DNA of 64,000 bases from Phyllosticta citribraziliensis (lineage: Eukaryota): assembly GCF_038025025.1 (NCBI RefSeq), contig NW_027117348.1:496001-560000 (forward strand), read 5' to 3'. Below, piece after piece: positions 7,367-63,971 of this stretch (position 1 is the first letter of the stretch; the number at the start of each line of letters is the position of its first letter). A program made the position numbers and the translations under genes. A model generated the notes under the pieces. That model saw only the letters and a list, made by a program, of their open reading frames with translations, ran no database searches and was not told where the DNA came from.

Positions 7367-7443
7367 GCAGGGCTACTGCAAAGTGTTTTCGGTGACCTGG
7401 TTTTGGGCAACTACCGTACCATCTTCTGGTGCGAAAGTGCCCA

Positions 7444-7578
7444 GCGTCTACGGACGGCCTCTGCGTCTTCGGACGGTCTCAGACTGCTTGGTGTTGTTAC
7501 ACAAGAACACCGACAGTCTCTGCGTCTTCGGACGGTCTCTGCGTCTACGGACGGTCTCTGCGTCTACGGACGGTCTCT
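7444..7578. repeat. 19-bp minisatellite GCGTCT(A/T)CGGACGGTCTCT, 2+3 copies
   Basis: Copies at 7444, 7463, 7522, 7541, 7560; partial copy near 7607. Confidence 0.9.
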
Positions 7579-8019
7579 CCTGGTCATTTCGTCTCTGTCT
7601 TCCATCTCGGACGGTGACCAGCGAAAGTGCGCCTTCAAGCGGATATCAACAGTAAGCAAAAGCCAATCCATAGAATGCCAATCAATTCAACTGTTGATGC
7701 AAGGTCTACGATTCCTTCAGTGCCATGTCTGTTGACCAAGTGATCCTGTCAGATTCGAATTCAAATCTATTTGAGTTCAGTACCAAAATGAAAAATACGT
7801 GAAAGCTGTTCCGCAACTGCAAACAACAAATGCATGAATAATTCTGAGAATTTTTCGAGCTGGTCCCGAGTTGGGCAAGTTTCCCCAGCAATCTCGGCGC
7901 ATGAATTTCGACACTGACGCCGCTGCTGCTGCGTCGTTCCGTATCGTCTGTGCCTACCCGTCGAAATCTTTCCACGTATCTCCACCCAGCACCAACAACA
8001 CACCCATGCACAAGCTATC

Positions 8020-9015
8020 ATGCCCACCATTCCTCCCAGACCTCCCAGACCTCGAAGAGACGAGTCCCATGGGGGCAGCAGCCTACCGCATCAGCCCAAC
8101 AACAACAAACGTGGCGGAGACCACGCTCTCGAAGATGAACGCGAACGCGAACGTCAACACAAAAGGCGCAAAGATTCGTAAGTCGCGGCGTCTGCCACGC
8201 TTCTTCTGGCTCAAAGCATTTTTTTGCGAAGACTCTTTAACTCATCAGTTAGCAGGGAGTTTATGAGGGGCAGATGTTGCTGCTGCATGCGAACAAAGCA
8301 CAGCGATTGGAGCGACTGCCTACGTACCTGTCACTGGTGCGGTAGAAAACACCCGGGCCACTGGTGCCGTGAGAAAGGCTACAGGTTCTTCGAAGAATAC
8401 GGTGGCGCAAGGTCTCGCGATCGAGAGACGGAAACACGGACTCGGGTCGACGAACGCAGGCCCTCGTTTGCTTCTCAGGACCGACGGTCTCCAGGGCCAG
8501 ACCAGCGTCGTTCGAACGCTCCCCGACAAGACGAGCGCCCCGGTCGCCTGCCTCACGACCAGGCTGATCTCGCTCGTGAGCACTCGCAAGAAAGGTACAA
8601 CCGATTGGCCGCTTGGATGGACAACAACGACATGCAGATCGGAGAACTCGAGCTGACCGTGACTGCCCAAGCCAAATCGATCCGCGACATCCGGCACGAG
8701 TTGGAGCAGCAGCGTCAGCAGCATACCAGGGAGATTGCAGAGTTGCAGAGGCAGAGGCAGGAAGAGATTCAGCAGCAACAGGCCCATGAGATCTCCCAGT
8801 TGCGGGAACGGCTGGAGCGGCTGGAGCAGCAGCAGCAAGAGCATGGTCAGGACATGGCCAATTTGCAAGAGGGAGTTCAGGATGCTCTGCCGTACGTCTT
8901 GATGCAGCAGCGGCAGCAGCAACAACAACAACAACAACAAATACAACAGCGAGAAGACAAAGACAAAGGAGAGGGATGTGAGCCGACACTGGGTTCTCCG
9001 ATCTTGATCGAATAA
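8020..9015 (+). CDS. Orphan protein with tandem CCHC-like zinc knuckles and coiled coil (paralogue 2)
   Basis: ATG 8020 (MPTIPPRPPRP); phase-2 intron 8178-8255; CCCCMRTKHSDWSDCLRTCHWCGRKHPGHWC has the same Cys/His spacing as paralogue 1; also shares RRSNxPRxD, SIRDxRxE and NLQxGVQ. Confidence 0.75.
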
Positions 9016-39681: not shown

Positions 39682-40209
39682 GTGTTAGGATGGCAGTGCT
39701 CGGGACTGTAGAGCCAGGAATGTGTAGCGATGACGCAAGGCAGTATTGAACGGACAGCAATGAAAATTTTGAGTGCAAAGGGATGATGCCGGTAGACTGG
39801 TGAAGATGTATTGCGAAGGCAACGCTTGGCGGGTGACGTCAAGCGACGAGACGAGACGGGGAGCTCGAGAGTGCCGTCAAGGTTAAGGTAGTGGCCGTAG
39901 TGGCCGAACCCTGAGGGACGAAGTTCTCGTTGTTGACTCCCTGTCCTGTCCTGCCGTGCTGTCAGGTGCATTGCCCCCGCCGTCTTACGTTGCGCTGAAG
40001 GCTGAAGCTGCCCTGCGCCCCAACCGTTCTCCGCGGCATGTGAAGGAAGGCATTGGTTACCTCTGCTCCTACCTATGACCTGCACCTGCACCTGTCCCTG
40101 GACCTGGCCCTGGATTCCTCCCGCGACAAGACACCGTGGCTCCACCGCTGCCTGGTACCACCAAGAAAATGCGAGGCGCCTCAATTGACTGCTAAAACAT
40201 AACACAGCC

Positions 40210-43200
40210 ATGGCCAACCCCGACGCAGACGATCCTCCAGACCTCGACCTCGACCTCCCTCCCCGCGACCCCGTTCCGGACCTGCTCCGACCTGACATGG
40301 CGACTACAACCACCACAGACCGACTACACAAGCTAGACATCTCAAGCGACGACCCTTCTGCCTTGCGCATTCTATCCCGCTCTCCACAACCATACCACCG
40401 CCGACAGAGCCAACGCCGTCAGCGCCCTCGCCTCGACACCACCGCTACAGCCCCCGTCCAACACTCGCACCTCTCGTCAACCTCTGCCTCTGCCTCGGCT
40501 TCGGCCTCCTCTCCCGACGACTATGACCATCTTGCCGCCAGAAGCCCAGCGTCGGCGGGCTTCTCCGGCCGCACCCCGCTGTCGCGCTCCCCGCACTCGT
40601 CCGAGTCGCAGTCGCAATCCGGCTCCGAAGCCGATGACGAGGCCTACAGCTTCGTCAAGCCGTTGCCGGCCCCGCCGTATCGGCCACACAAGGGATTGAT
40701 GGCCGACGGCGCGACGGCCGATGGAGAGAGTGCGGTTGTGAGACGAAGGACGTGGGGTGCTGGCATGGGTCTGGGTGTCGACTCGCCCGCTGACATGGGC
40801 GAGGATTCGGCGCTGTTGACTCCGAGCGTGCTAGAGGACGAGGGGAGGCGGTTGGCCGAACGATTGAAGAGGGCCAGGGCAAGAATGAAAAAAGAGGGCG
40901 ACGGCGAGGTAGAGGTTGAAGAGGACGACGGGGTGAGGAAGGAGAGGGAAAGATGGCTGAGGAGACGGAGAGCCGAACTGTTGAGGCGCGGATGTGAGGT
41001 TGCGCTTTTGGGAGTCATTGGCGCAATTGTGTTTGCCGGGGGAGCAAAAAAGAGAGCAATGGATTTGTGGGCCAGAGGTATGGTTTCTACATCCCTAACC
41101 AGGAAGAATGCTCATGTTGTATTAGCAGAGCTGTGCACCTTTGTCGTCGTCTACGCATTTCTTTTGCTGCTATATCCTCTACGCCTGCTACTCTCCCCGA
41201 AAGACAAGAGTATCCCGCTCAAGAACCGCGTACGCGTGCCGGCCGCTTTTGATCCTGCGCCCCTCCTATACCCGGCTGCAATTCCAATCTTTGTTTCGCT
41301 GTCATTATATCCGCAGATGGAGCATGTGCTGCTTCCCAACATCGTCTTGGGTCTGGCAGCACTTCCGGCGCGCCTATTTCCTTCAGTTGGCCGCGGGGCT
41401 GGCTACAGCGTAGAACATTGGTTCTTTTCAATACTTCCTCTCATCGTATCCGAACACACGGACATGACTTCAAAACTCGCACCCGCAAGGCCATACCTGC
41501 TCAAAGCACCCCAAAATCGCGTCGACCCGGAAATAATCGCATTGCTTTACCCTCTGCATCAGGCTCTTTTGCCGCCGCTGTACTACCTCACCACCACTTC
41601 TCTCTTACCGTCGGAGCTGCAACTTCTCTCCGTCTCGCTCATCAATCTTCTTCTCTTCTCGGAGAGCCCGCAGATGAAGATTCTGAGCTCCATTCTCTGG
41701 ATCGGAGGCTTGCTCCTCTTCATTCTGTGCGGTCCTGTGTTTCGCTGGGGCGTTGCTCTCGCGCGAATCCCCAAGTGGCGCTTTAGACGTCCGGGTCGTG
41801 TCAAGACGCAGCCGGTGTCATTGCTGGCAACTCTCAAGGAAAGCCTGAGACCAGCATCGCAGTCGCGAACGAGATATGCGGATGACAGCGACGCCGACGA
41901 GGATCACCTTCCAGGCTACCATTCCGACGACGATAGACGTGCGTCGATTGTGTCGGCATCAAGTGCTGTCCAGGTCCTCAGCGGCGCCTTTACAACCGCA
42001 TCCGAGACGTTTAGAGGAGCCATTTCCTCGCGCTCTGGGATTGCCAACGGCACGCCATCGAGCTACAAGCCGCGGCGGCGCAACACCATTCAGACCCTCG
42101 CCTCGGAGAGCACAGTCACGACTTCGATATCGACCGCCCGAGAAGGCCGACGCCGTAGTTCGCGCTCGTACGCCTCGTCATTTCTCTCCTTGACCTCTAC
42201 ACAAGCCGTGCTTCGCAAATGGCTCTACGCACTCTACGTCTACGCGACCATTGCCCTCATCGTGCTCATCCCCCTGCGTGTTTACATTGGCACATTCGCC
42301 CTCAACGGCCACGATCCTTTCGGCTGGGCCATCGGCTACCTCTTTGGCAACCAGCGCCGCATACGCTTCCAACTCTTCTCGCTCGGGCTTGAAGCATGGG
42401 CCGCTCTACCACCCCTCTCCGACCCTCTTGATCCCTCGCATCTCCCGCCCGCCGAATTCGCCCGCCTCATCGCTCTCGGAGGCCCTGCAAATACGCGCCT
42501 CGCGCTCGCCGTATACGATGTCTCCGTCCTCTGCGCAGGTCTCGTCACAGTCCTGCTGCTCCTCCCCTCCACCGTCGCCGTCGACACGCGCCGCAAAATC
42601 TTCCACGCCACCATGGTCGCCATGCTGCTGCCTACCGTGTACGTGGACCCGCATTTCGCAGCGCTCGCGACGGCGCTCGTCCTGGTCGTTTTCCTGCTCC
42701 TGGATTTGCTGCGCGCCAGCACGCTGCCCCCGCTTGCCAAATGGTTGGGCAGGTTTCTCGCACCGTTTGTCGACGGCCGCGACTTGAGAGGCCCGGTGGT
42801 CGTGAGCCATGTATTCCTGCTGATAGGCTGCGGCGTCCCGCTTTGGCTCGGCGCGTCGCTTCTGCCCACATCCTCCTCGTCGTCCGCGTCCCTCGACAAC
42901 CACCCCTGGACCGGCTGGGACATCTCCCCCTCTTCGCCGTGGGCCGCCAAAGCCGACCCCTCTCTCGTCGCGGGCGTCGTCTGCGTCGGCATGGGCGACG
43001 CCGCCGCCTCGCTCGTCGGCCGCCGCTTCGGCCGGCGCAAGTGGCCGTGGCTCGGCGGCAAGAGCGTCGAGGGCAGCGCAGCGTTTGCGGCCGCCGTGGC
43101 GCTGGGCCTGGGGTTCGCGAGGGCGTGGGCGTCGTGGGGGTGGGGCAGAGCCGCCGCGCAGGGCGGCGTCGCGGGCATGGGCAAGGTGCTGCTGGCGGGC

Positions 43201-43299
43201 GCCGTGGCCAGCGCCATGGAGGCCGTGCTGACGGGCGGTAATGACAATGTTGTCGTGCCTGTTGTTCTGTGGGTTGTCGTTCGTGGGCTGGGCCTTTAG
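40210..43299 (+). CDS. SEC59: Dolichol kinase
   Basis: DTRRKIFH, FVDGRDLRGPVVVSHVFLLIGC, GMGDAAASLVGRRFG, KSVEGS, NDNVVVP; probable in-frame intron near 41078-41128. Confidence 0.9.
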   Translation: MANPDADDPPDLDLDLPPRDPVPDLLRPDMATTTTTDRLHKLDISSDDPSALRILSRSPQPYHRRQSQRRQRPRLDTTATAPVQHSHLSSTSASASASASSPDDYDHLAARSPASAGFSGRTPLSRSPHSSESQSQSGSEADDEAYSFVKPLPAPPYRPHKGLMADGATADGESAVVRRRTWGAGMGLGVDSPADMGEDSALLTPSVLEDEGRRLAERLKRARARMKKEGDGEVEVEEDDGVRKERERWLRRRRAELLRRGCEVALLGVIGAIVFAGGAKKRAMDLWARGMVSTSLTRKNAHVVLAELCTFVVVYAFLLLLYPLRLLLSPKDKSIPLKNRVRVPAAFDPAPLLYPAAIPIFVSLSLYPQMEHVLLPNIVLGLAALPARLFPSVGRGAGYSVEHWFFSILPLIVSEHTDMTSKLAPARPYLLKAPQNRVDPEIIALLYPLHQALLPPLYYLTTTSLLPSELQLLSVSLINLLLFSESPQMKILSSILWIGGLLLFILCGPVFRWGVALARIPKWRFRRPGRVKTQPVSLLATLKESLRPASQSRTRYADDSDADEDHLPGYHSDDDRRASIVSASSAVQVLSGAFTTASETFRGAISSRSGIANGTPSSYKPRRRNTIQTLASESTVTTSISTAREGRRRSSRSYASSFLSLTSTQAVLRKWLYALYVYATIALIVLIPLRVYIGTFALNGHDPFGWAIGYLFGNQRRIRFQLFSLGLEAWAALPPLSDPLDPSHLPPAEFARLIALGGPANTRLALAVYDVSVLCAGLVTVLLLLPSTVAVDTRRKIFHATMVAMLLPTVYVDPHFAALATALVLVVFLLLDLLRASTLPPLAKWLGRFLAPFVDGRDLRGPVVVSHVFLLIGCGVPLWLGASLLPTSSSSSASLDNHPWTGWDISPSSPWAAKADPSLVAGVVCVGMGDAAASLVGRRFGRRKWPWLGGKSVEGSAAFAAAVALGLGFARAWASWGWGRAAAQGGVAGMGKVLLAGAVASAMEAVLTGGNDNVVVPVVLWVVVRGLGL

Positions 43300-44104: not shown

Positions 44105-46354
44105 ATGGAAGACGAGTCCGCCAAGAACGTCGATACTGATCTGGCTGCCGATACAAATGATGGAGTCATCAAGCTTCCCGGCATCTTTCGACTACCGCGA
44201 GAGCTCCGAGACATCATCTATGGCTACATCATCGATCTCGACCTCAGTCGAGGATTCTGGGGAGATTATGACGGACTGTCTCTAAGCCTCGAGGACTTGG
44301 ACGGAGGGGAGAGCAGGCTGGAAATGAAAGACATTCACAAGGCACTTTCGGTCGTGTATACCTGCAGACAGCTCCAAGAGGAAGTTCAGCATCTCCTATT
44401 CGATCGCTGCAAGGTCGACATATGTTTCAAAAGGAACAGTTCCAGGCCTGTTAGTTTTCTGTGGCCTCTATCGCTATGGAGCACTCCAGCGTGCTAACGG
44501 CAATAGATAAAAGACTTCCATCCTTTTCCATTTAACCTACTCCACCTGTGTCGCGACTTACGAGTTACGATAACAGTACGTCATCAACGGATGCCCGGCC
44601 AATTCCGCGGTGCCCGAAACAAACCCATTGAGGAGCCGTTTTCCATCGTACATGACGGGACCTCCCACCGAAAGGCAACGCTCGTGCGGTCAGCGTTTAG
44701 AAGTCAAGCTACCCCAGACGCCGACCGGGTGGAAGACGGCGCTCAAGATGCTCAAACTCCACGGCTTTGGTCAGCCGTCGTTGCACCCTCTCGCCCTCCG
44801 CCTTCGACTCGTCAAGTCCGGGACTACGACCTCCAAGAGCTGTATCCCCACAGGCTTTGGTCGGATTCGTTCCCACCTTTCGAAAACACCCCATGCGACT
44901 GGCGCTGCGTCCAACTGTTCCGAAACCTGTCCGAGCGTCATCGCTTGAGGCGGCTGGAGGTCGAATTCGTCGGTCTGGGCCACGCGAGAGAAGTCGCCAG
45001 GTTCGTGCACTGGGATCTGAGGATGGGGCCCAAATACCGGCTTCCCCTGCTCACGAGGTCTGATTATGGCGCCCATCCGTACATCGAACTCATTTCCGGA
45101 CTCCGAAAGGTTCCTCGAGTGCAGTTTCTCTACGAGATACCCTACGATGATGATCAAGGGACCTGCGACTACGATTGCCTCCTAATGGAAAACTACTTGA
45201 GGCGCCAAGTCGAAGACACGGACGAGGCGCGTTCGTTGGTCGACTTTGCCGCACAGGGCGAGGGCGACTTCGATGACATTTATCCAGCCTTGCCCCAGTC
45301 AACAGCGACGGGAGTGGAGCCGATCAGATTCGAGTCCGTCACCCCGCTCGACTTGAGGAGCGACGAATTGTTGCTGTTCAAGTGCCCGAATCGCCGGTTT
45401 CGCCTGTTCGACGACCACAACATCTTGATCCCGCCGCCCTTGCGGGAGAATACCTACGATGCTCCTGACGTGCTCCCGTGGATCATGCGCGGCCGAGGGT
45501 ATGACGCTGGAGACACGGACGTCTCGGAGGATTCCGACGCCTCTAGCAGTGGGCTTGGCGGCGATGATGATCTGGGAGACTCTGAAGAAGGCTCTGAACA
45601 TCCTGCGCACTCCGATGGCTGGGAGCCTCCTGAACCTGAGATCCCCGAGGGTTCTGGTGGCGATGCGCTGGGAGGACTTGGCTCAGAAGGTCACGTTGAG
45701 GTCTTGGAAGGACATGATGATCAAGATACTGCCCAAGCGCCGGGGGAGTCCGGCGACGAGGAAAGCTCCGGAATCTTGCAGGTGTTTGATTCGCCGGACG
45801 AAGAAGACGCTCCACACGGCAGTCCCTTCTCGCTGGGACTCTTTCCTGTCGAATGGTTTGACTCGCCAGACGAAGAAGACGTTCAATACAGTAGTCCTCC
45901 GTCGCTGGAACTCTTTCCCATTGAGTGGTTTGACTCGCCGGACGACGAAGTCATTCCGCACGTCAGTCCTTTCTCGCTCGAATTCTTTCCTGCCGAATGG
46001 CTTGACTCGCCTGACGAAGAAGACGCTCAACACGGCAGTCCTCCCTCGCTGGAACTCTTTCCTGTCGAATGTTTTGACTCGCCTGACCTGCCAGAGATGT
46101 ACGACTCGGATTCATCGAGCGACCAGGAGAGCGACTATGAGGAATACATCCCCAGATACTGCCTTGAGATGGGACGCCGGAGAGCGGGATACTCCTGGGT
46201 GTTCGACGACTTGGACGATCCCGAGGGTGGAGAGGGACCTTTAGAATCGGCTGCGCTGATGGAGCCTGCAAAGCCTGAAACCGAGTCCCTTCTTGCGGAA
46301 ATCGGTGTCTCCCCAGAATGGCTTCAAACCAGTTTGCTCCCCGTAGCTCTCTAG
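44105..46354 (+). CDS. F-box-like array gene A, with acidic repeat tail
   Basis: FRLPRELRDIIYGYI...TCRQLQEE; phase-0 intron 44450-44506 joins the two ORFs in frame. Confidence 0.8.
45785..46090 (+). repeat. Coding 72-bp (24-aa) tandem repeat x~4.3 in gene A
   Basis: FDSPDEEDAPHGSPFSLGLFPVEW-type unit, copies starting at 45785, 45857, 45929, 46001, 46073. Confidence 0.95.
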
Positions 46355-46829
46355 CCCTCGAGTAGGTCGGCAATGGGAAGCGTTTCGGCGACTTTTGGAG
46401 CAGACATTTCCGGGATTTTCTGTTTTTCCAAGACTTTGAAGGATTTTCATTCCTTGTATGCTCGTTTTTGACTCCTGATGAAACCAAGAGGTAATTACAC
46501 GCGTTTGATGCATTTTCCCGATGGTGGTGTCTCGTCAGGGGTAAGGGGTAAGCAGCAAAGGTCGTCGGAACCGCTGCAAAATACCTCAGCACTCTTGAAA
46601 AGGCTCTTTTAGTTGGTTGGTGGATCCTCTGTGTTGGATGAGAAGCTTTGTTGCTGGATTGTTCCAAATTTAGTCCGGTGTTGGCTAAGCCAACACCAAC
46701 AGGCTTTTGGCAACCCATCGCGGGAGAGCGCCTCGCGTTTCCGCGTTCGAGAATGTGTTTTATTGTAGCGCCGGTACCTTACAGACATCCTTCATCTGCT
46801 CTCTCTGTCCAAGGCTTTCTCGCTCTCGA

Positions 46830-48206
46830 ATGCTCCCAGTCTCCAACACGCCGATAAACGACACTTGCACTCAGGCAGATGGAGCCCCTGAGCCAGTCAA
46901 CACGCCCGACAAAGTTCCTCTCTTTGGTCTTCCACGCGAGCTCCGGGATGCGATCTGCCATTACTTGCTCCCTGCCGATGAAGTGGTCTTTGCAAAGTAC
47001 AAAGGTCTAACAGTCAGGATGTGGCTTCTTCACGAAGAACCGCTATATGACAGAAGATATCACAGAAAATTCGATTTTTCAATCGTCGTCACTTGCAGGC
47101 AGCTGCGCGCAGAAGTACAAGATCATATCTTCAGAAACTTCTTAGTCGAATTGGACTTTGGATGCGAGCCTGTCAGGCGCGTAAGTGCAGCATGTTCTGT
47201 AGCATCACTTATCGGGGGAAGATGTTTCGGAGGCTAAAGAATTCAACAGAGGGGCCCAACATGTCCACTCGACTTTCGTTTATCTCGTCGACTGGAAGTA
47301 TCTCTCCCGATATATCGTGAGCAAAAGTACGAGTTTCTCGGGGCTGTGCGAAAGCCATCAGTAGAGCCATACTCCATGAAACATGACTGGCTTTCCCCGG
47401 AAGAGGCAACACTTAGACGCTCGGAATTCTTCAGTCTGGGGGCAGCAGGCTCTGGCCGAGCCCAAAAGCGCGACATCCAACATGGACAGCCTAAAGACCT
47501 TTGGTCGAGAGTGGTCTCGCCCTCTCAGGACTCTTCGGACGCAATCAAGGTGCGAGGATATGATTTGCAAGAGCACAATGCAAGGTACATCTGGACGGCG
47601 TCCGGCTATATCCGCCACCCTTCCGTGCCCCTATACAAAGACCCTCGCCACCAGCCTTCGTTCGCAATGTTCAAGAGGATGGCCACAGATGGTCATTACC
47701 TGCAGTATCTAAAGGTCAATTTCGAGGCGATGGAATGTGGTCAGCACTGTCTGGGGAGGTCCTGGTTCCGGTGTGAAGATTTTCAGATTACCAGATCCGA
47801 CTACGGCACCTCCCCATACCTCCGTCTTCTTTCACGGCTTGGTCGCACTGTTCCGAAGGTGCGCATCGATTTGTGGGTGGGCAGGCTGGACGACTACCAA
47901 AAGTCGCGAAGATTCGATCAAACGCTGATGAAAAACTGGCTGCGGCGCCGGATTGAGGATTCGGATGAAGCGAGAGCGTTGCAAGATTTCCCGGGGTGCG
48001 ACAGAATGTCGTACGACGAATGCTTCCCAAGGCTCTCCGATGCGGCTGCCGAGCAAGAGGAGCCTCTCCTGGAAGCTTCTGCACTTGTGTTGCCGCTTTG
48101 TTTTGAAGACATGGGCTTGACGATTGAGGAATTCCATGACCCACGGTTGCGTCTTGTCGATGACTCCAACATACTTTGCCCATTTGAGCGTTTGTCACGG
48201 GAGTGA
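46830..48206 (+). CDS. F-box-like array gene B
   Basis: FGLPRELRDAICHYL...TCRQLRAE; intron ~47181-47249; shares TRSDYGxxPY, LMxNxLRRxxEDxDEARxLxDF and RLxDDxNIL with gene A. Confidence 0.8.
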
Positions 48207-49677
48207 TTGCTGTGCTGTGGTGACGCTGAGAGTTCCTATGAAGGTGTTGGCAACAGTGGACTTTTTTGAGAGCCAGGACTCTTTTTCGAATTTGATTTCG
48301 GCGGAGATGAAATTAAACCTCATGAAGCGGCTTCAGGAGCATTCGCATGTTGGTGTCTCCAGGAATTTGCCGTTGGAAAAACCTCAAGAGCGCGCTCTGG
48401 GAGAATTCGTGCGATTGACGTTTTCATGACTTTGCCGTTTGGCTGCGGGAAGCGTCTTGATGGTTGGACATCCCAGACACGGCTCTGCCAAACGCAAATG
48501 AGTAAAGCAACTCATCACTGGCATATATAAGTGCGAGGAATGGCCAGTTCCAAAGGGATTCCGCACAGAATCCAAGCTGAGGTGAAGTGAAGTGAAACCA
48601 GCCCTGTCTTGACCGCCTTACCAACAACAGATCATGGCGCCAGCTTTGACGTATAGCCTTATAATGCTGCGGCATGTGAATCGATGGGAACTCCCTTTGG
48701 GCGGCCTCATCACGTGCACGCGCACCCACCTACCGGCACCATACCGTGCGGCACTTGCTCGAGTCTGCCTCTATATTATCCTCCCACCCTCTCCACACCA
48801 TCCTTCCACCTCACACCTCTCGAGTTCGACCTCAACAACGAGCCAACCTGGGGCTTCCACCTACATCGACCTTGCCTTCAGCCACTGACCTCACCGTCCT
48901 CCCTGTCGCGCTCGGACCGAACAAGATCACGGTCGACATCTCTCACTGTCGCTCAGTGAGCGGTCAAATGAGCTCTTGCGCCATGACGACCGACGCTGGT
49001 GCTGGTGGTGACAAGTAAGTGTACTGAACGGCTGGACGCTCCGATGCTCACGCTAATATCCTCACTCAACCCGTAGCGCAATGTCTGCACCTGATCCATC
49101 CGGGCTCCAGCTCCCCATCCAGGCCGCAATCTTCCTCAGGGCACCCCGAGAAGTCCGCGACATGATCTACGACCATGTCATCGACGATGAGTACACCGCA
49201 TGTGGATATTGGAGTCTTCCAGATGGCAGGATGCGGGAGTGCGACATTTCGTATCTAGGTTTGCACCATGAAGAATATCAGCCGAGACCAGGACCCACGG
49301 AACGCTTGCCAGCACTGGCCACAACATGCACGCAGATTCGCGTTGAACTTCTCGAGACCTTGTATCGGACCACTCGTTTCAGCCTGGAGGCATCAATGGA
49401 CCATTGCTTTGATGTGAGCTTTTCCTCACTTGGACCAACGAATAGAGACTGACTGAACATTAGGACACCTGTACTCAGCTTGAATTGCGAGTTGGTAGAC
49501 CTTTCATCGACATTGGTCAAGTCTGCCATCTTGACATGGAATTGGGTGTCTGCGGAGTTGCATCTCTTCGCCACATCGCCCAAGCCAAGCCTTTCTTGAA
49601 GGACCCCTTCTCTATTCGATACAGGCAACCCCACGGGAAACTTTCGGACGCCGCTTTGATTCGATCTGATGACAGCC

Positions 49678-49944
49678 TGTTGGTGGTCCTATGTAACAAT
49701 ACTAAGCAGTCTCCCGTCGCGTCGTCTCAGCTATAGTTTGCCTAGATAACTGTAGCTTATCTGGATAATGACTTACTACTTTAGTTAAGATGTACTTATC
49801 TGTTAGCTTTGCGCGTCTTAATAAGTTTAGGACTTATTAGTAGTTAGTACTAGCTACTGCTCCTCCTGGTAGTTTTAGTAGTATATAGATAGCTCTTAGA
49901 GTAGCCTTAAATGGAGTCTTTAGTTCTCTTATCTTACTTTATTA
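49678..49944 (+). repeat. 5' LTR
   Basis: TGTTGGTGGTCC...CTTTATTA; collinear with the 3' LTR. Confidence 0.93.
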
Positions 49945-52900
49945 GGTTATAAGCCCTTATATTATATATATAAATTACTTATCTAGCTTATTTTGGTATT
50001 GTACTGTAACACCATCTATATAATTATTACTAATAGTTATTTTATTATTTTGTTATTTTATCCCTTATTATCTTATATAATTCCTACTCTTTAGTAAATT
50101 TATTAGTATTATCTATCTCTATAACTCTAAGTAATATACTAATAGTTATTACCTTTACTATAACTTTACCTTCCCTTCCTCCCTTATTATCTAGTAGTTT
50201 AGGCTTTACTGCTGCCTTATCTTCTATACTAGCTAAGTAGGCTAAGGCTAAAGAAGAGGTAGACCTAACTATAAATAATAGTAAGTTTAGTATCCCTTTA
50301 AAGAATATCTAGCTACTTAAAGGCCCTGCTAACTAGGTAACCTTTAAGATAATAGTTAAGATGAGGCTTAGTCTATTCTATTATGCCTATCTACTTAAGG
50401 ATGAGCTAAAAAATGCTACTAATTATAAGAAGGATGCGTATATTATCTGCTAGTTTATAATAATTATTATGCTTCCTATTATAATAGCACTATAGGGGTA
50501 TACTAGTTTAGCTTACTCTATATAGTAGAAGCTTTATAATATATATAATACTAAGGGTATCCTCTTTAAGGCTAATATTATTAAGGACTTCATCTTCTAT
50601 TAATATAGTAATTTTATAATAGTAAAGGAATTCTATAATACCCTATATAAATAAAGGTAAGCCTGTATTAGCTATATCTAATAGTAAGTTAAGGACTAGA
50701 TTCTCTATGTTCTACTTCTAGAAAACTTATAGGATAATATTCCTATCTAGTATATAACTTAGTATATAAATTAGTATAATAAGAAGGAGATGCCTAAGTT
50801 TAAGGATCTCTTCTATACTATAACTAATAAGATTAAATATACTAGTAAGAATAGTACTATAGCTCTTACTATTTATACTAGTTAGTAGTCTACTAAGTAG
50901 TCTAAGTCTAACCATGCCACCTATAATTACTATAGAAAGAAGGGGTATATTAAGGCTAAGTATAGCTATCTTTACCTTAAATACCGTCCCACCTATTAGA
51001 AGCCAGTATTAGGGGTATTCTATATACTAGATAATTAAGTCTCTAAACTACTAATAGTAGTAATAGTAATAATAATATTAATAACTAACCCTCTAGTATA
51101 AGGCGCGAACTACTTTACCACCCTATACCTATATCTAGCTTTAATAAAGGATGAATAGATTATTAACACTAGGGCTAATACCTACTATATACTAAATTTA
51201 ACTAAGCTAATAAACTACTTATAGTTCGCGCAGCTAGTCTAGGTATATAGTTTAGGTATAGTAATAGCTATTAGCTATAGTAACGCCGTACTCTACTATC
51301 CTATAAATAGTATAGTTAACACTCTTATAATAGAGGGTATTCTATATATTCTAGTACTAATAGTTAGTCTTATCTTAGCTTTAAAACTTAAGTAGAAGGG
51401 ACTATACCTAGATCAGCTTACCTCTATATTATAAATATAAAACTATAGAATGGCTATTATAGCTTACCCTAATAGTTTAGGGGTAAATATTCTAATAGTT
51501 ATTAATAATAATTATATAGTATAAGTATTTACTATAGCAACTCCTCCTGTAGTGATATATAAGATATGGCACTAGTAATTAGGGTATATCTATACTAGTA
51601 CACTTAATAAGCTCTAGTACTAGGGATAACTTATTATTACTAGTAACTAAGACTTCTATTATAAATCCTACTATATAGCTAAGTCCTACTAGATGGTATT
51701 ATATAAACTAATACCTTAAGTAGACGCACCCTTTAGATACATCTATATTAATATATTTAGACTACTTATAGTTAGCTATAATAGCTGCTATTAGGGGGTG
51801 GTATTTATAGATAACTACTTATATCTATAATACTTATTAGTTATAAAGACTAAGGGCGACACCTTTAATAGCATTTAAAACTTTAGTAAATAGACTAAAA
51901 CCTAGTTCTAATATAAGATCTAAGCTCTCTAAATAGATAATAGTATAGAGTTTAGCGGCTAAAAGCTGCTAGTATAGGTAAAGATAGAGGGTATTAAGGT
52001 TAAAAAGATGGCACTATACTTATCTAAGTAAAATAGTATTAGTAAGTCATCTATATACCTTATTACTAGTATGGCCCGCTCTATAAGTATCGCGTTAAAT
52101 ACACCTTAATTATTATAGATAGAAGCCTATTAATATATAGTATATCTTCTTAACTATCTTCCTACTTGCGCACTTAATAGCAAGATACTAGTTAATATTT
52201 TTAATAATGCTATTAGTAGGTATAAGGATATCTAGTTACTAGTACCAGTCTTTAGTATTACTATATATGCTTATATCCTGGCTGAGAAGCGTCTTAAGAG
52301 CGCTAAATTTAATATAAGAGTAGAGAAAGGATAGTTTATTAGCTATAACTATAAGTATATCTTCTAGGTATATCTCCCTTAAATAAACTAGGTTATTTAT
52401 ACTTAGGATGTATATTTTAGACCTCCTTAGTAGCTAGACTTAATAGCTACTATAAATAATATAGAAGATAGAAAAGTTAAGAATAGTAATAATAAGATGC
52501 TTATTATATATCTTATATTAAAAATAGTTTAAGATGCTCTTAAAGGTAATACTAAAGTAATCTATAATGTAGTAGAATAAGCAATTAAAGTGGTAGAGAG
52601 GTCTAATATGGGTAGTATAGATATTAGTAGTAGAGGTAAGGAGGACGCGTTTATAGATATTATACTATTAGTAGATAAAATAGATTAGATTAATATCTCT
52701 CTAGCTAATAAACACACTAGATCTAATAATTTAGTACTTACTAACCTAACTTTAACCCTACTACCGCCCTTACTATCTCTATTACCTACACCTACTCTAC
52801 TACTAATAGCACCATCATGATACCCTTAGTAGATTCGCACTAAGATACAATTCTTTAATAAGAAATACAGTTTAGATAATACTCAACCTCCTTAACTATC

Positions 52901-54599
52901 TACTTACTACATGCGCGCCTTTACTACTATAGAAAATACTACTTATTACTAATAAGACACCATCCCTACTAATAAGGTTCCGCCTTACTTATAGTATAAG
53001 GCCCTTATAGGGCTAAAATCCATCTATTAGAGACCCTCTATAGATAAGTAGATATAGGAGTTAACTAATACTAGCACCTTTAAAGAGACTAACTACCTAT
53101 TAGATAGCTCTTAGGTACTACTACTATAATAGGTCTAGGTCTATAAGCTTAATAAGCTAGGTAAGAAGGTTATCTATAAGAGCTATATTATAGTTTTAGG
53201 TAATCTTTAATATAAGGGATTTAATATATCTAAAGTATTATTACTAGTTATTATATTTCCTACTTTTATACTATTTTTAGTAATTAACATCTATTATTAC
53301 CTATTTTATAAGTAAGGGGATATTAAGATAGCCTTCCTTAATATACTACTAAAAGACCTGGTCTATACCTATATACCTCCTAGATACCAGGTCCTATAAT
53401 AAGTTTAGCATCTCTAAAGAGCCTTATATAGCTTATACTAGTTACTACTTACTTAGTTTTAGTACCTCTATAATTTCTTATACCACCTAGGTTTCTACTC
53501 TCTCCCTTTAGAACCCTATATTATAAGATACCAGGATGAGCTTATATTTATCCTTATCTATATTAATAATCTCTATATTACTACTAAAACTAAGTCTAAA
53601 GTTAATAAAATTATCTTACTACTTAATACTAAGTTCTACTTTAAAGATATAGGCTAACTATATTACTTCCTTAGTCTTTATATTAATTAATATATAAATA
53701 GCATAATTATACTATCCTAAGGTAGATATATTTAAAACGTTCTTATATAGTTTAGTATAAGTAATGCTGCGCGCATCCTTATACTAATAGATTCCTATAA
53801 ATTACGCGCATATAATAGTAAGAATAACCTAGACTATTAATAGCTTTATAGTAAGATTGTTAGCTTACTTATATAGTATATAATAAGATGCTACCTAGCT
53901 ATTCTTTTCCCTACTACTTATCTCTTATAATACACCCACAACCTATTAAATAAATACCTTACTACTACTTACTAAGTCCTTTAATACTTATAGGGTATAT
54001 ATAATTATAGAATTATTTTATACTCTAGTAATAATAGTACTCTTAGCTTGTAAATCTATATAGATACTACTTTTACTAATAATCTAGATACTTATTAGTC
54101 CTTATTAGGCTATGTTATTATGGCTTTAGGTGGTTTACTATATATAAAGAGTAGGAGATAGAAGCTTATTAGTATATCTATAATAGAAGCTGAGTTTATT
54201 AACCTTACTCCTACTATTAAATAAGCTATCTAGATGACTCAAGTTCTTGCTAAAATAGGTTATAAGGGCCCTGATACTTAACTAATCTAGCTCTATAATA
54301 ATAATGAGAACGCCATCTAATTTACTAATAGTATAGAGTTTAATGCTGCTATAAAATATATTAATCTGTACTACTAGTATGTTAAGTAGGTAGTTATAGA
54401 TAGAACTATAACCGTCTCTTATATCTCTACTAATAAGATGATTACAGACGGGCTTACTAAAGTATTAGTAATAGTTAAGTACTGCTACTTTTATAACCTT
54501 ATTAGGTATGGACTAATGTAGTAAGTTTTCTATTTAGTTAATATAACTACTTATATATCTACTCTACTATAACTGTCTCTTTTCTTATCCTGGGGGGTG

Positions 54600-54866
54600 T
54601 ATTAGTGGTCCTATATAATAATACTAAGTAGTCTCCTATTGTGTTATCTTAGCTGCAGTTTGCCTGGATAACTATAGCTTATCTAGATGATAACTTACTG
54701 CTTTAGTTGAGATGTACTTATCTATTAGCTTTATATATCTTAATAAGTTTAGGACTTATTAGTAGTTGGTACTGGCTACTGCTCCCCCTGGTGGTTTTAG
54801 TAGTATATAGATAGCTCTTAGAGTAGCCTTAAATGGAGTCTTTAGTTCTCTCATCTTACTTCGTCA
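54600..54866 (+). repeat. 3' LTR
   Basis: TATTAGTGGTCC...CTTCGTCA; differs from the 5' LTR by C/T and G/A transitions. Confidence 0.93.
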
Positions 54867-57173
54867 CAGCCTTACTCCCACACCATATTTCGACCTGAAA
54901 AACTACGGCTTCTATTCGGACGTCCAAGTTGCAGAGCTTCTTGAAAAAGAGACCTATTGGGCCTTTCCGACTGCTCAAAATTCTCTCTACGGTAAACAGC
55001 TGGACGAATTTTTCGCTTACCTTAGCGCCCGCGGGAATCTGAAGTCACTCAATGTCAGGATCCTTACCTTGGGGCACAAGCCAGACTACTTCAAGTGGGA
55101 TGAGACCTCAGGCGTCACTGCATTCTTGCGTCCCTTCAAATACGTGCGTGGACTCCAGAATGCCACCATCAAGTTTCCAAACTGGCGAGATCCGAGCACC
55201 CATGAAGCCGAAGTTCAGCAATTCTATCAAGAAGATGCGCACATAGTCGAGAAGTGGATGACTTCCGTTCATGGAGACTGCCAGCAACATCCAGACATCA
55301 TCTGCGCTTGCAAGACTTGCTTTCCCTCTCTGCCCGGCACTCAGGCTGGACGCCGCAACGCGGAGACAAATTCGAGCCATGAAGAGCACGATTCGGGTGG
55401 AAACACGCAACTGCGGATCAACGAGGTTGAGGCGGCCAAGGCACGCCTCGAAGCTGGCGAGGCAGTCCAGGACGGAGCGAATTGGTGGACGACTGAATTT
55501 CCAATTTGGGGCGGCGATGAGTGGGCACATGGACCCCGCGAATACTACATTGGCCTGCAGAACACTCCACACAAGAGGCAGTACAAAGAGCTTTGTGAAG
55601 AATTTGGCAAGATCTGGGCCGTGGAGTGGTGGACCGAGGACGGCTTCGGCATTGGGGATGGTGAGGGGTACTGATGGACTTCTCTCTTACACCGCACTTC
55701 CACCAGATGTTCCTTTTCATTGGAGTAGGCCTTGGACCTTTGGTCGGGCTGAGATTCATTTCCAGCACGCACTTCAAATGCGGAAGATTGCCGAAGGCGT
55801 TGCTCGAAAAGTTTCCTTCTCATCGGTTCTGTTTTTGCTACACGGTCATCGTTTGCGAGCATACAGCCTGATTCACGGCTCGCCAGCAGATCAGTGGCTG
55901 CTTCAAGAAGAAGGCAAGGAAGTACAGGGTCTCACGGAGTTGGGTTGGTCTTCTCTTTTGCTTTTTTCTCTTCTCCTCTCTTGGTTTAAGACTGGATTAT
56001 CCACGACAGTCAGTTCGCGAGGGAAAAATGGCGGCAGTTTCATAGTGATAGAGTTAGATTTGGGTTTACAATGGGAAGTCTGGTTTGTGAATTATTCCCC
56101 CGTAAATGTCCTTCTTTTAGGTCTTGGTTCGCCCAAGCCAGTGATGCTTTTCCCCCTGTCATTCAGAGCTTGAATGCTCCAAATGTCCTTGATACCCCCG
56201 GGTGACTCCATCAATACCGTGGAATAACGGTGACGCCAAGCGTCCTCTGGTTGGATGCACAGATTTGGCGCTCGGAAAACTTCATCATCTGTTACAGGGT
56301 CACAGTCGACTGCTAGAGTGCGAGATTCTCGTTCTTCTTCCAGCATTTTGGCGCCTGTATTCTACCTATGTCTCTTTCGAGTCGAAAGGAGAACGTCTCG
56401 GGGCCTTGTCTTTCGTATCGTACCCCCCCTTTTTTTTTCGGCCGTACAGCTCTCATTCAGAAAAACGTCTCATAGGCCACGTTTTTCGACTCGAACATGG
56501 TTTAATACATTCAAGTTCTTCTACGAGTACTTCCAGCAACCGAGGACCTTGCGGCTGGGAATGTTCAAGACGATATCGCGTCCATTCGTCGATCAGCTTC
56601 TTGGATGGACCGAGAATCAGTACAGTGTCAAAGGTCGAGTCTACTTTCCTCTTTCGAAGATTGCCCCTTTACCAGCAAGAAGATTGGCCAGAATGACACA
56701 CCAAGTGTTAATTCCGGCCCCAATCACTGACACTGCTATAGACCCAGGACTCAGGCCCTGACACTACCGGCTGTTACGTGATCAGGCAAGTAGATGCGCA
56801 AGGAGTTCCGCGAACAGGGAAAGACAGCGGCGGCATCTTCAGGCCGCGAATTCCGGTCAGGCGCTCGGGCAATTTTCCATTTCCCGACTCACAGAGTATG
56901 CGCAAGACTTCGAGTAGCGGGTGATGGCTGACTAAGTTCAAGCACCTTTTTGGGTCTTTGTTTACTTTTCGTCCACCACGCCAACCTCTCCTCTTCGACA
57001 CTCTCATCGTCCTTTTTCAACTCCACCTCCCGGACTGGCTTCGTTACGAGGACGCATCCCAAGGCCGACCAACGACCGGCCACGATCCCCACACGTTCTC
57101 GCTGCTCCCATCCACGAATGCTCCTCATCTCGCTCCTGGTCAAGTAAATTCAAGCTCGCAACCGGAGTGCAAG

Positions 57174-58608
57174 ATGGGCTCTCCGACCCAAGAGCTCGTC
57201 GAGATGGACGGAGCCGCCTGCAGGTAAGCCATGCTATGACCCAATCTCAAGTATTAAGATGTCTTGTTTCTGATTTCTGGTTACGACTCATAGGAATCTT
57301 CCGCCAGCCTTGCTGCACGGCCACACATTGGCCCAACTTCCTGATTTCCTCAATCCAACCAAGGTCTCCCAGGAAATCCGTGACAGCATTTACGACATTG
57401 TAATCAAAGATACACTCGCTCGTGGCACCTACATCTGCGCTGCAGACGGGACGTGGAGGCTGGCGTACTTGTGCCGGCAACCTGAGGGTCTCACAACACG
57501 TTCCTTTCCGTCTCTCCTCGGCGCCTGCAAGCAGACACGGGAAGAGTTCCTCGAAAGGATTTACGCCAAACTGGGTTTCTTGATCGAAGTTGTGAACCAT
57601 GACGAAATCAACGTAAGCTGGTGCTTCCCCCTTCACAATCAAAGCTGACAGTTCCAGTATGGCATTCCGAACCAGATCTCGATCACTCCTCTCTCCAAGA
57701 TTCGTCATCTCTGCCTGCAAGTCCATGTCGAGCCGGCTACTGAGCTCTCCTTCAAGGCGAGCGACAACGGCTTCATCAAAGAGCCCTACTCCATCCGATA
57801 CACCGCGAGTGGAAGACTTTCAGAAGCCAAACTTATTCGGTCTGCAGAGAGCTTGAGCCCGACGGGCTTTTGGGACGTGAAAAAGTACGGGATCCACGGA
57901 AATCAGTCCCTCCCACAACTGGTTCAGGCGGAGGAGATCTCGGTGCTGCCAACGGAGTATAACAGCAAACTGGGCCAATCCCTCGGTCGTTTCCTCAAGA
58001 TGCTAGCGGAAGGGAACAATTTGATGTCACTGGACCTCAAAGTTGTGCTGCCAATGACCCCTCGCAGCAGCTTTCCCGCGAGAATCACAGCCAGCTCCGG
58101 AATGAATGCCTTCATGCGCCCATTGGAGACCATGGATCAGATCAGAGACGTGAGTATCTCCGTCCAGGGTCACCGAGAATTCCAATCAGAAGGCAAAGAT
58201 GTACAAATGTTTCTCGAAGCAGACGCCGAAAGAATTACCGACTTATTGAAGAGCAACCGCCAAGGCTGCAACATCAGCCATGAGACTCTGTGCTTTTGTG
58301 AGAAGTGCTTCCCACCGCTCCGCAGTCGCAAAGAATGGGACGAGGGCAAGGAAGAGCAGGCATACTCCCAGGACGACAAAAACGACGAAGCTTATATTGA
58401 GTATGAGATCGAGAAAATTATTCACAAAAAGCGAGAGCTGGCCGACGATCGCGAGTACTTTGATCCCGAGGACGTTTTTCCAGCACACCACTCTGAGAAT
58501 GCGCACGGAGAAAAGTCACGCTTCTGCGTTGGAATCCAAGACCACGACTCAGAGGACGAGTTTGGTTGCAGCTGTCCGGAGTGCAACATCGGCCGAGCTC
58601 AATGGTAA
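57174..58608 (+). CDS. F-box-like array gene D, 3 exons
   Basis: Introns 57224-57293 and 57613-57657; KVSQEIRDSIYDIVI, CKQTREEF, FIKEPYSI, CNISHETLCFCEKCFP, FCVGIQDH...CSCPEC. Confidence 0.82.
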
Positions 58609-59535
58609 TACGGCCCTCTCGCCACGTGAACGGCATGATTTGATCACAATGGGGTGAACGAACGCAGGGCTGTGAGCCTTTCGCAATAGAGTCACATGCT
58701 TGAGGAGGCAGAGATCTTGCAGATTTCAGCATCACAGAACCAACGGGTGGCTGTGGTATCGACAGATGCAATCTTGAGATGCTACTGCTGGTCTTCAAGC
58801 CAGTCTTTTCTTTTTCTTCTTGAATTCGTCTAGGTCAAAAGACAGAAGCAACAAGGATGATGCGGGTGTAGCTCAAGTAGTATAACTCAAAATCGATGAT
58901 CTTGAACACATGATGCTGGGTAGATTTATTTCGTCAATTGCAGAGGCCGTGGAAATCTTAATCTCCAGCTTGGTAACTCCAGGATTACTCTGTTATTCCC
59001 AACCGTCTTTTATGTGCCAAAGTTCCCTCTCTGTCTCTTTGTGCAGTTGAACGTCCCCTGGCCCATTAAGTTGTAAGAGGTGCACATCCAGAAGTTCCAG
59101 CATCACTGTCGACTATGAAGAAACAAAATTTCCATGGCCGTTTTGTTTTGCCTTTGCCAGGTGATCTGTGTTGTTAAACTGAAAGTGTGGCTGGAGTCCT
59201 TGCCTAGACGCAGCTTTTTAACACTTAGCATGTTATTTCCCACATGAAGCTTTTTTCATGGCGGCCAAGCGACGACTCGCCGGCGCTTTTCGTGGTACAC
59301 ACACACACAGCTTCCCTCTGTCCTAAACAACCTCCCAACTTCAACATCTCCAAGATCTCATGAACCTCCCCCTGCCGTTGTCAGCACTTGTTTGATCCTC
59401 TATCGGCAAATACGCTCAAGGCATACTGATCGACTACTCTCCCGCTATTCTGACACTCTCCTCGCTTTGCGCAACTCGCCACCCAGCTCCGGCCTGCCCT
59501 GGTCCAAAGGCGTCCGCGTCCGGCAATCATTTGCC

Positions 59536-60991
59536 ATGTCAACCCCTCTTGAGCAGACTTCCGAGGTCGCAAAGAAGACAGCCAGGTAAGAGTTCAGAGA
59601 GCTCAAGCCTCGCAACGACGCATGTTGAAAATGACCAGCGACGAAAGCCACTCCGCCACGGCCACGAAAGAGGCTCTCGCCCAAGTTCCGCCTCGCCTGA
59701 TCAACGAAAAGCTGCCTCGCGAGGTCCGCGACAAAATATATGATATCGTGATCAAGGACGAACTTTACCTCGGAACACGCAAGACAGCGTCAGATGGGAC
59801 CTGGCGTCTGACCTACTTCCACCGAAGGCCGGAGAGCAGCTGGGTAGGAAATGACATAGCTCGCGTTTTCCCTTCTATGCTGGCTGTCTGTAAACAGTCA
59901 AGGGAAGAGTTTCTGGAACGAATGTACGCCAGATTGGCATTTCGCATCCGTATTTTCGACTATCAAAACGCGGATGTAAGCTGCTTCCTCCCATCTTCAA
60001 GTTCCAAACTGATGATTTCCAGTTCCTTGGGGTCCCGTCACCCTTTCCATATATCGAATTGTCCAGGATTCAGGATCTCATCTTAGAGCTATGGTTGGAA
60101 CCAGCCCACGAACACTCCTTCGAGGTCAAGGGCCATGATGGTTTCATTAGGGAACCGTTCTCGTTGAATTACGATGCGAGCGGATCTCTCAAGGGAGCGA
60201 CACTTGAACGATCCGAGAGCACTACAAGCCCGACGACGTACTTCGACCTTCAGAAGCACGGCATCTACAGTGACCACGCGCTTCCTGCCCTAGTCGACGC
60301 TGAAAAGAACACCGCTCTCCCGACACGTCACAACTCGAAGTTCGGTGAAGCCCTCCACAAACTACTCGTCGCTTTGGGAGAAAGGAACGAACTGCTATCG
60401 CTGGATCTCCGCATCGTCCTGCCTTTTCGCGGTCGGAGGTCCAACGGCGAAAATGCCCCCGCACCACAGATCAATTCATCTTCTGGAGTGAACGAGTTTC
60501 TGCGCCCACTTGAGCTCTTGCATGGCATGAAAAATGTCAAGATCTCGGTCAAACGTAGCAATGAGCTGTACGAGCGCGGTCAAGATCTTGCGACTTTCCT
60601 CCGTCAGGATGCCGAACGACTGATGGTCCTCCTCAAGAGCGATCGCAAAGGTTGCAGCCTCTCACTCGACAAGATATGCCATTGTGAGGAATGCTTTCCC
60701 TCTCTTGGAGGAAAATACCGACAGCCCGAGGCCGCCACCAAATCAGGGCCCGAGGACGAGTACGACGAGTTCCTGGTCAAGAGTCACCTTCGAGATGTCG
60801 AGTTCAAGAAGCGAGACTTGTCCGACCGCGATGAGAGCTCTACTCTTCCCGATCGTGGAGACTTCCCCGTCGGCTATGAAGAGCATGCAAGTGCTGGAAA
60901 CCCGTACTTTTGCGTTGGTGTCCAGGAACACGACGCAGATAACTGGCAATGCGACTGCCCCGCATGCTGCATCGAGCACAGCAAGTGGTGA
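59536..60991 (+). CDS. F-box-like array gene E, 3 exons
   Basis: Introns 59586-59638 and ~59976-60022; KLPREVRDKIYDIVI, CKQSREEF, FIREPFSL, CSLSLDKICHCEECFP, FCVGVQEH...CDCPAC. Confidence 0.82.
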
Positions 60992-61080
60992 ACATTGGGA
61001 AAAGTATGTCCCAGAACTTAAACGAGATGGTCTCCTGCTAAAGAATCGATGCGCAGGGTCTCGAACAGAAGACGGAATCC

Positions 61081-61360
61081 TGCTGGATCGCCTCCTTCGC
61101 ATTCGGTTTTCCTGGTGGAGCAACATTAAGCAGCTCGCTGTCGTCAGTTCGCCGCTTCAGTCTCCTCGTCTGGTCATCGGTTCATCGGTTTGCCGCACAT
61201 CGAAAAGGGCTCAGTCAACTGCTCAGGCCATCGTGGTCTCTTACAATCCGACGGTTGGTGGTGACTACTTCTCTTAGTGAAAGCAGTGGCTTCAGCAGCA
61301 GTATATAGTCAGCTCTCAAAGTAGCATCGAATGGAGTCCTCGGTTCTCTCATCTTCGTCA
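61081..61360 (+). mobile_element. Putative solo LTR related to the copia LTR, little RIP
   Basis: 3' part GTGGCTTCAGCAGCAGTATATAGTCAGCTCTCAAAGTAGCATCGAATGGAGTCCTCGGTTCTCTCATCTTCGTCA aligns with the copia LTR end; candidate TG start at 61081; flanks AATCC/ATTCC (4/5). 5' boundary uncertain. Confidence 0.6.
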
Positions 61361-61740
61361 ATTCCAATCAACTACAGTCCCAGCTCAAGAGTAAACGCGA
61401 CGGGTGCAATCTCTCAATCGACACCATTTGTACCTGTGAGCGATGTTTCCCTCCTCTCCCCGCGAACAAAATCCGATCACACAAGGCTGTTGCGCCAGAG
61501 CCGGATGACGAATACAGTCCGGGGGAGATTGACCGCGCTATCGAATGCGTCGAATGGGCGAAGCAAGATTTGGTCGACCAGAATAATTCGACCTTGCCCG
61601 TGCATGGCAATTTTCCCATTGGACACGAGGAGGATGCCCTTGCTCGACACTCTCGTTTCTGTGTTGGAATCAATCAACACATCGAGAACGACTTCAATTG
61701 CGGCTGCCCCGAGTGTGCCATCGACCGTGGCCAGTGGTAG
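61361..61740 (+). pseudogene. Array gene F, C-terminal fragment only (no F-box-like N-terminus)
   Basis: Startless frame absent from the ORF track: LKSKRDGCNLSIDTICTCERCFPPL...HSRFCVGINQHIENDFNCGCPECAIDRGQW*, homologous to the D/E C-termini. Confidence 0.85.
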
Positions 61741-62582
61741 ACTTGGTGAAAGGTATGTTGGAGACCTTGAATGTGAGTCGTGAGCTAATCATCCACAAGA
61801 CGGAGTTTTGTCCTGGCGATGTTATGCTCCAGGTGGGTACAGCGCTGTGATGATGTACGGTACAGTCTTTGGCCTAAGGAAATATGAGGGGCAGGAGAGC
61901 ATTTGGATTAGGCTGCACAGTTGGGTTAACAGGGAAAGGATGGAAAGACTCCAGAATGGAAGGATTTGGCGCCATCGAACATCCCAAAATTGAATTTTAT
62001 TCAGTAGCACTGGTTGTTTCATTCCTTCCCTTGCATATTCTTGCTTGACAGAACTTGATCCAGGGGCAGTATTTGCCACAGCGAAATTTCTTGGTAATCA
62101 CTTCATTGAATAAATTTCGCCCTGCAAACGGCTGTTCTGGTCTGCTCGCCATAGCGCTGGTAGCGAGCTTCATGGAAACGACGGCAAAATGGAGGTTGGA
62201 CAGTGCTTGATTTAACATGAAGTGTGTCACATAGTTGGTAAAGTGTGTTGGTCATGTTCTTTACACCACAGTGCTTTTAACACAGAATGTGTCAAATAGT
62301 TGGCGATGCATGTTGCTAATATTTTTAACACCATTGCCGAGACTATTAGGCCAATGTTTTAGGCGCTCTATGATCTGGGGCACATGGCCGGGGCGGAAAG
62401 CTTCCATGCACGCAAAACAACCGCTCCCCTTCCACAACCTTTTCCGCCACCTGCTCTGAAACCCTACACCTGACAACTCGCCACAAACAGAGCCCCACCT
62501 GGTATCTTCCGAGACGAAACATTCCATCCGAAGGCCTTGGATTTTCATATTTAGCTCTACCGCCACAACCTGTGCCTTCAAC

Positions 62583-63971
62583 ATGAGCTCAGCTACGGTT
62601 CCAGATATCAACTTCACAGCTCAGAACAGGTGAGCCCAGTAAGATCTCAACACAAAGCCTTGCTGACCGAATCCGTGCAGTGATCTGGCGATCATGAAGG
62701 AGCAGCTCACCCCTCAAACCTTGCCCTTCTTCAGCCTCCCTCGCGAAATTCGCGACAACATCTACAAGGAAGTGATTGCCTTTGATTTCAGTCGCGGATG
62801 TCGAAGAAGAGCCACGAACGGCACATTCAGTCTCGAGTCATTTGATGACCGGGCTAAATTCAGGTTTGACAAAGTGGCATCTCTGCCGCAAGTGTGCCCT
62901 GCGATGCTTTCTGTCTGCAAGCAAACACAAAAGGAGTATGTGGAGCGGATGCATGAAACATTGGCTTTTCGGATCGTGATTCAGGACTACGAGGATTTGG
63001 ATGTAAGATGTCTTCTCCATCGGGCCGCGAATGTCAAGGTTGATGTTTTACAGTTTCTCGGTCCCTCCGCCCATATTCCCTTTGTCGACTTAGCGAGGAT
63101 TTCCGACCTTTCAATGCAGTTTTCCCTGATACCTGCCATCGAAACTGTGTTCCAAGCAAAAGAGAAAGCTTTCATCAAAGAGCCCTTCTCCATAAACTAC
63201 AACGCGGATGACTCCTTGCACCTCTCTCGGTCAGAAAGCAGCATGAGCCCTACACCCTTTTTCGACCTCAAGCGATACGGATTTTACAATGATCAATCCC
63301 TCCCCGACCTTCTCGAAGTTCAACAGGTCTCCGTCATGCCCACAAACTCCCAATTTGGACGATCCATGCAGGAGTTGTTTGCGTGTATCGGGCAAACCAA
63401 CAATCTCAAGAGGCTGGATCTCCGTATTTTGGTGCCTTACATCGGAAGGTGGTTCCCCCAAGGCGAACCCGGTTTGACGATTTGGACTGTTTCCGGCATA
63501 GAAGCATTCATGCGCATCTTTGCAACAACTGATCGACTTGAAGACGTTCGAATTCGTATCAGGGGAGACAAGTACTTTCAACCCGAGAACGGTCTCGGAA
63601 TCTTGACTTCAAGACTGCGAGCCGCAGGTAGGAGACTTGCCGCACTTTTACAGAGCAATCGCCAATCCTGTCAACGCGATGCAAGGATCTGCATGTGCGA
63701 GCGGTGCTTTCCCCCTCTTATCAGCAGCCGTCCTGATCACGCACAACGTCCTGTTGACAACTTTGAGGCCAAATCCGACAAAACCATCCAGAGTGCGATA
63801 GCAGACGTCGAACGGAAGAAGAGACTTTGGCTCGAGGACAATACGAAGAACGAGCAAGCCGAGTCTGGCCGCGAGTGCCGCACGTACTTTCCGTACGTCT
63901 TTGAGGAGCATTCATTTGCGGAATATTGCGGATTTGTTCTTGGCCTTCAAGAGCACACGGGGACCTGGTAA
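62583..63971 (+). CDS. F-box-like array gene G, 3 exons
   Basis: Introns 62630-62680 and 63003-63053 (the second is in frame); FFSLPREIRDNIYKEVI, CKQTQKEY, FIKEPFSI, CQRDARICMCERCFP. Stop lies near the window edge. Confidence 0.8.

Follow-up and report, generated by a model that had tools for sequence, protein, structure and literature searches.

A Phyllosticta-specific tandem array of divergent 2EXR/DUF7730 genes with an F-box-like start

What do the products of a row of very divergent genes in Phyllosticta citribraziliensis, a citrus endophyte (PMC9073689), have in common, and why do only divergent copies remain? The window analyzed here is a stretch of 64,000 nucleotides (NW_027117348.1; G000:C11:496001-560000) of the 31.35-Mb assembly, with the array lying mid-contig. 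By their exon models, seven paralogues, A to G, occupy positions 44105-63971 on the + strand, and genes H (L009:1541-3190) and I (L009:4071-5385) continue the series within 4.4 kb past the window end. An earlier, sequence-only reading had described seven same-strand paralogues; these stand, but the full array has nine members over approximately 24 kb. The explanation moderately favored here is that a Phyllosticta-specific subfamily of 2EXR/DUF7730 proteins is maintained in one tandem array under birth-and-death evolution, and that the intact proteins would act as substrate receptors of Skp1–Cul1–F-box (SCF) ubiquitin ligases, resembling F-box/leucine-rich repeat (LRR) proteins.

The paralogues are united by motifs and introns rather than by overall identity. 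Eight copies of a relaxed motif, [PS][RQ]E[LIV]RDx[IV], lie in 44001-69000, all on the + strand, and there is none in the other 93 kb examined. The motif had been given as LPRE(L/I/V)RDxIY in six of the genes, a form that proved too strict, as D carries VSQEIRDSIY, C carries APREVRDMIY, and the B motif ends in AIC. A later helix, CxQxxxE, is found in all six of A, B, C, D, E, and G, as had been reported, and so is the phase-0 intron at an equivalent position, which follows codon 115 (A), 117 (B), 123 (D), 129 (E), or 123 (G) and is also in phase 0 in C; members of the C–I group share an extra phase-2 intron near codon 15-17. The proposed division into two subfamilies, A/B and C–G, holds as well: A and B are 34.5% identical and C, D, E, and G 27-43% identical, whereas BLAST between the subfamilies is marginal (E 0.001-2.4), and they are joined by profile–profile comparison (probability 79%, E 1.6e-5, 186 columns). 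Given that nucleotide similarity among the paralogues is limited to seven patches of 29-79 bases each, all of the duplications are old.

The N-terminal domain leads to a family that is already catalogued. The E exon passes the Pfam cut-off for 2EXR (PF20150; 27.1 bits, cut-off 24.8) and the C exon that for DUF7730 (PF24864; 29.2 bits, cut-off 27); the other 12 of the 14 array stretches fall below these cut-offs, and none of the 16 full-length proteins passes. Aligned as profiles, the domain matches 2EXR/DUF7730 with an hhalign probability of 98.3 (E 1.2e-14, 89 columns), and these fungal proteins of unknown function have the same LPxExR...LLxxCRQxxxE...F domain at their N-terminus. There are 13 2EXR and 19 DUF7730 matches genome-wide. 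Unlike these, the array proteins have a region after approximately residue 150 that was found only in Phyllosticta and is absent from the 23 other 2EXR/DUF7730 loci fetched. Several of the other DUF7730/2EXR genes form close pairs (G000:C11:248581-251224, C4:276978-279481, and C2:1423186-1424133), and one frame contains two 2EXR domains. To call it an undescribed system was an overstatement, and no second component was found.

How much of an F-box is this domain? The sequence-only reading likened the start of the proteins to an F-box; the likeness survives, but canonical F-box models do not pick the domain out. None of the 47 matches to PF12937 in the genome lies in the array, and against the F-box model PF13013 the array reaches only E 0.05-0.08. 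F-box helix 1 (LPxE) and helix 3 (LxxVCK) match in order only when the insertion columns are set aside, and the unedited comparison is not significant. Since UniRef labels A and the orthologues of B "F-box domain-containing protein", the F-box guess is already in databases. In the literature searched, neither 2EXR, by title or abstract start, nor DUF7730 is the subject of a paper, nor is a comparable fungal array, although PMC9621593 mentions 2EXR once, and the term "F-box" is absent from the main text of three Phyllosticta genome papers. In the related Macrophomina, 31 F-box proteins are reported, 61% of which have no second domain, and the accessible part of that report mentions no duplication (PMC7991009).

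The predicted structure of G (62583-63971, 428 aa; exons 62583-62629, 62681-63002, and 63054-63971; public model P0049 identical) suggests how the two helices may be brought together. Helix 1 (LPxExRD) spans residues 34-51 and helix 3 (LxxCKQxxxE) residues 90-109, with a β-hairpin insertion of approximately 40 residues in between, and the core of the model can be aligned over its full length with F-box/LRR chains, in a weak but colinear match. The two helices would then constitute an F-box split by the hairpin and docking on Skp1/Cul1. Downstream, four β–α repeats with long variable insertions, a CxCxxC site of the C–I subfamily (possibly a zinc site), and a variable tail may select the substrate, and the paralogues, long diverged, probably have different targets. 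It is also conceivable, though rather unlikely in our judgment, that the domain derives from an F-box and no longer serves an SCF ligase, its invariant polar ExRD/Q/E surface binding another conserved partner or only stabilizing the fold, with the proteins being scaffolds or decoys. The failure of the array proteins in canonical F-box models and the 40-residue insertion inside the motif speak for such a change of function, as does the residue following PxE(L/I), which is R in 17/17 family rows, whereas the genome's canonical F-boxes mostly have a hydrophobic residue there (L in 10 of 21, R in one). However, each half of the motif matches an F-box helix, in the right order, and the alignment with F-box/LRR chains covers the entire core. 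The array is a branch, confined to one genus, of a large family already catalogued, and its proteins are probably SCF-type receptors.

The array protein is soluble, and its C-terminal region had been described as a domain not recognized. Profile and Pfam searches find no match to a characterized enzyme family, in line with that description; the region looks like a short, degenerate β–α repeat in the model rather than a new fold. An enzyme domain, namely a partial triosephosphate isomerase (TIM) barrel of the radical S-adenosylmethionine type, is very improbable. One of the closest comparisons is with the FBXL receptors (Skp2, FBXL3, and plant D3/MAX2), in which an N-terminal helical motif is followed by parallel β–α repeats, as appears to be the case here. 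In contrast to these, the F-box of the array proteins is split by a hairpin, the repeats number about four and carry long insertions, there is no match in sequence, and the SCF role is a prediction.

The family is lineage-specific, as had been proposed. A profile of the C-terminal exons of both subfamilies, searched against 1.84 billion representative proteins at E <= 0.001, retrieved 20 proteins (some of them query rows), all with E <= 1e-10; 18/20 bear the name Phyllosticta, and the other two are the B fragment of the window itself and a protein without a name. The copy sets differ between species. In P. capitalensis, four of six assemblies carry A, B, and three C-like genes under consecutive accessions, and the other two carry four of these five genes; P. 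citricarpa keeps the gene order, with B, C, F-like, H-like, and I, the F- and H-like copies only as fragments within fused models; and P. citrichinensis has A. Orthologues of B are found in P. citricarpa, P. citriasiana, and P. capitalensis. In a 26-row tree, in which five rows are fragments and seven of 23 inner branches are open, A/B split from C–I (100/100), A and B pair with their P. capitalensis orthologues, and the three C-like genes of P. capitalensis join C (97/98). Over aligned residues, A is 78% identical to its P. citrichinensis orthologue, and the identity to P. citricarpa is highest for I (72%), followed by B (57%), H (52%), and C (40%); when P. citricarpa is compared with P. citriasiana, orthologues are 92-97% identical, and the published average nucleotide identity of these two species is 96% (PMC6965161). 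With nine copies here and five annotated in P. capitalensis, the comparison of species supports birth-and-death turnover, absences being judged from annotation rather than from DNA.

Two copies are broken beside long terminal repeat (LTR) sequences, as the sequence-only reading had noticed. Gene C is cut into a 5' part (48968-49677, + strand; exons 48968-49014, 49077-49413, and 49464-49677) and a 3' part (54867-55674, + strand) that aligns with D, E, and G. Between them lies a complete retrotransposon of 5,189 bp (49678-54866, + strand) with two LTRs (approximately 49678-49944 and 54600-54866) and a 5-bp target-site duplication, CAGCC, at 49673-49677 and 54867-54871. The element bears the signs of repeat-induced point mutation (RIP), with a GC content of 0.29, a composite RIP index of 1.46, and 32/32 LTR–LTR differences being transitions (262-bp stretches), which shows for this element that RIP acts in the genome. 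Its LTR has at least 29 matches genome-wide. The element itself is absent from the 11 RVT_2 matches of the genome, but its family is copia-type, as on another contig (G000:C5:724163-729346) two LTRs of that family bracket a 1516-aa frame that contains RVT_2 and has no interruption. That frame is intact, whereas the other listed RVT_2 matches contain stops. An empty-site allele of C exists, given that one low-depth contig from run X1 joins the halves of C without the element: from 54866 it runs into the 5' letters of C as far as the insertion point (by eye, 29 of 30 listed letters agree; core at 49642).

Gene F (61357-61740, + strand) is, as described, a C-terminal fragment only, of 127 codons and 41% identical to E, and it starts immediately behind the 3' end of a remnant (61254-61355, + strand) of a related LTR. 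One contig from run X2 leads backwards from 61355 into E-like sequence at 59707 (80% likeness, to be read with care), and the P. citriasiana protein placed with F in the tree (support 100/99) has the part missing from F; because both keep the 5' part, F was formerly a complete gene. That the LTR caused the deletion is not shown, since the relative also has an LTR-like piece. In the same run, at 59820-61461, the contig over the E coding region differs at 62/958 letters and an adjoining contig of similar depth at 5/679, possibly reflecting mosaic haplotypes.

Single copies are dispensable: a retroelement insertion has cost the genome C, and a deletion F. With RIP acting here, young near-identical duplicates are likely penalized, and such a penalty would explain why only very divergent copies remain. 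Could the array then be largely the product of neutral drift, a genome prone to tandem arrays having left copies under weak selection and without any conflict? This is a real possibility, if short of probable, and it fits either biochemical reading. Besides the broken C and F and the fragmentary F- and H-like copies of P. citricarpa, the occurrence of other DUF7730 genes in pairs favors it, as does a close relative in which 13 of the 15 codon changes listed are non-synonymous (a biased subset, 40/974 rows). On the other hand, invariant residues and intron positions are kept across proteins less than 30% identical, orthologues of A and B have been retained since the split from P. capitalensis, and six of the nine frames of the array show no sign of disruption, all of which speaks against drift.

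A role in non-self recognition, or in defence against viruses or transposons, had also been suggested, and no evidence for it was found. Receptors of this kind (het-like, antiviral, or anti-transposon) would fit the fast turnover and the depth to which species have diverged (their orthologues are 40-78% identical), and a precedent is available in nematodes, in which fast-evolving F-box adaptors take part in immunity and hybrid incompatibility (PMC12951971). Within P. capitalensis, however, the five proteins are nearly invariant, being 96.9-100% identical in 19/19 comparisons between assemblies, although one homothallic species is a weak test. Allorecognition genes are expected to show deep allelic classes. 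Moreover, no NOD-like receptor (NLR), HET, or effector domain lies in or beside the array, both flanks of which are housekeeping genes: a nitronate monooxygenase (PF03060, E 3e-52) and a membrane-protein frame at 40189-43299, presumably a dolichol kinase from its motifs, with no Pfam match. The defence reading is distinctly improbable.

The Caenorhabditis F-box families expand by tandem duplication with species-specific gain and loss (PMC12951971), and this is a feature that the array shares with them and with the fast-evolving F-box families of plants. It differs in being nine genes at one locus, with old duplicates only and little polymorphism in the one species sampled. A bolder and quite unlikely proposal is that 2EXR/DUF7730 as a whole is a cryptic, hairpin-split F-box defining a large unrecognized class of SCF receptors in filamentous fungi, with the array a fast-turnover set targeting foreign or selfish proteins, those of mycoviruses or retroelements, as a counterpart of the nematode immune F-boxes. 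If Skp1 binding is true, 2EXR/DUF7730, with at least 13-19 loci here, would make up a large group of fungal ubiquitin-ligase receptors that has been overlooked, and the array would offer a small set for testing in which nature supplies both broken and intact alleles; if it is false, the array would be one more orphan tandem family.

As to the remaining gene models, all on the + strand, A (44105-46354, 730 aa; exons 44105-44449 and 44507-46354) has a long acidic tail, in which four 72-bp tandem repeats (45784-46087) encode acidic 24-aa units that are fewer in the P. citrichinensis orthologue. B (46830-48206, 435 aa; exons 46830-47180 and 47250-48206) is taken to start at the first in-frame ATG. 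D (57174-58608, 439 aa; exons 57174-57223, 57294-57612, and 57658-58608; public model P0006) has the degenerate first motif VSQEIRD, and E (59536-60991) encodes 451 aa in exons 59536-59585, 59639-59975, and 60023-60991. The exon models of A (P0011), D, and G are identical to the public ones over their full length (730/730, 439/439, and 428/428 aligned residues). Other public annotations (P0047, P0048, P0009, P0010, and P0061) often fuse adjacent paralogues or join the 3' part of C to retroelement sequence, so that protein databases undercount the array. The frame of H (L009:2051-3190) continues for approximately 58 codons beyond the tryptophan that ends D, E, F, and G, possibly owing to stop loss or an unrecognized intron. 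Gene I has a GC content at third codon positions of 0.90, compared with 0.56-0.64 in A–H, and its 3' end seems, by eye, to change frame before the acidic tail, possibly reflecting a frameshift or an assembly error. Elsewhere in the window, at 6647-9015, two adjoining small paralogous frames form a further tandem pair; in both, a Cys/His cluster (CCCC..H..W..C..TC.WCG.KH) stands at the N-terminus and the tail is a Gln-rich coiled coil.
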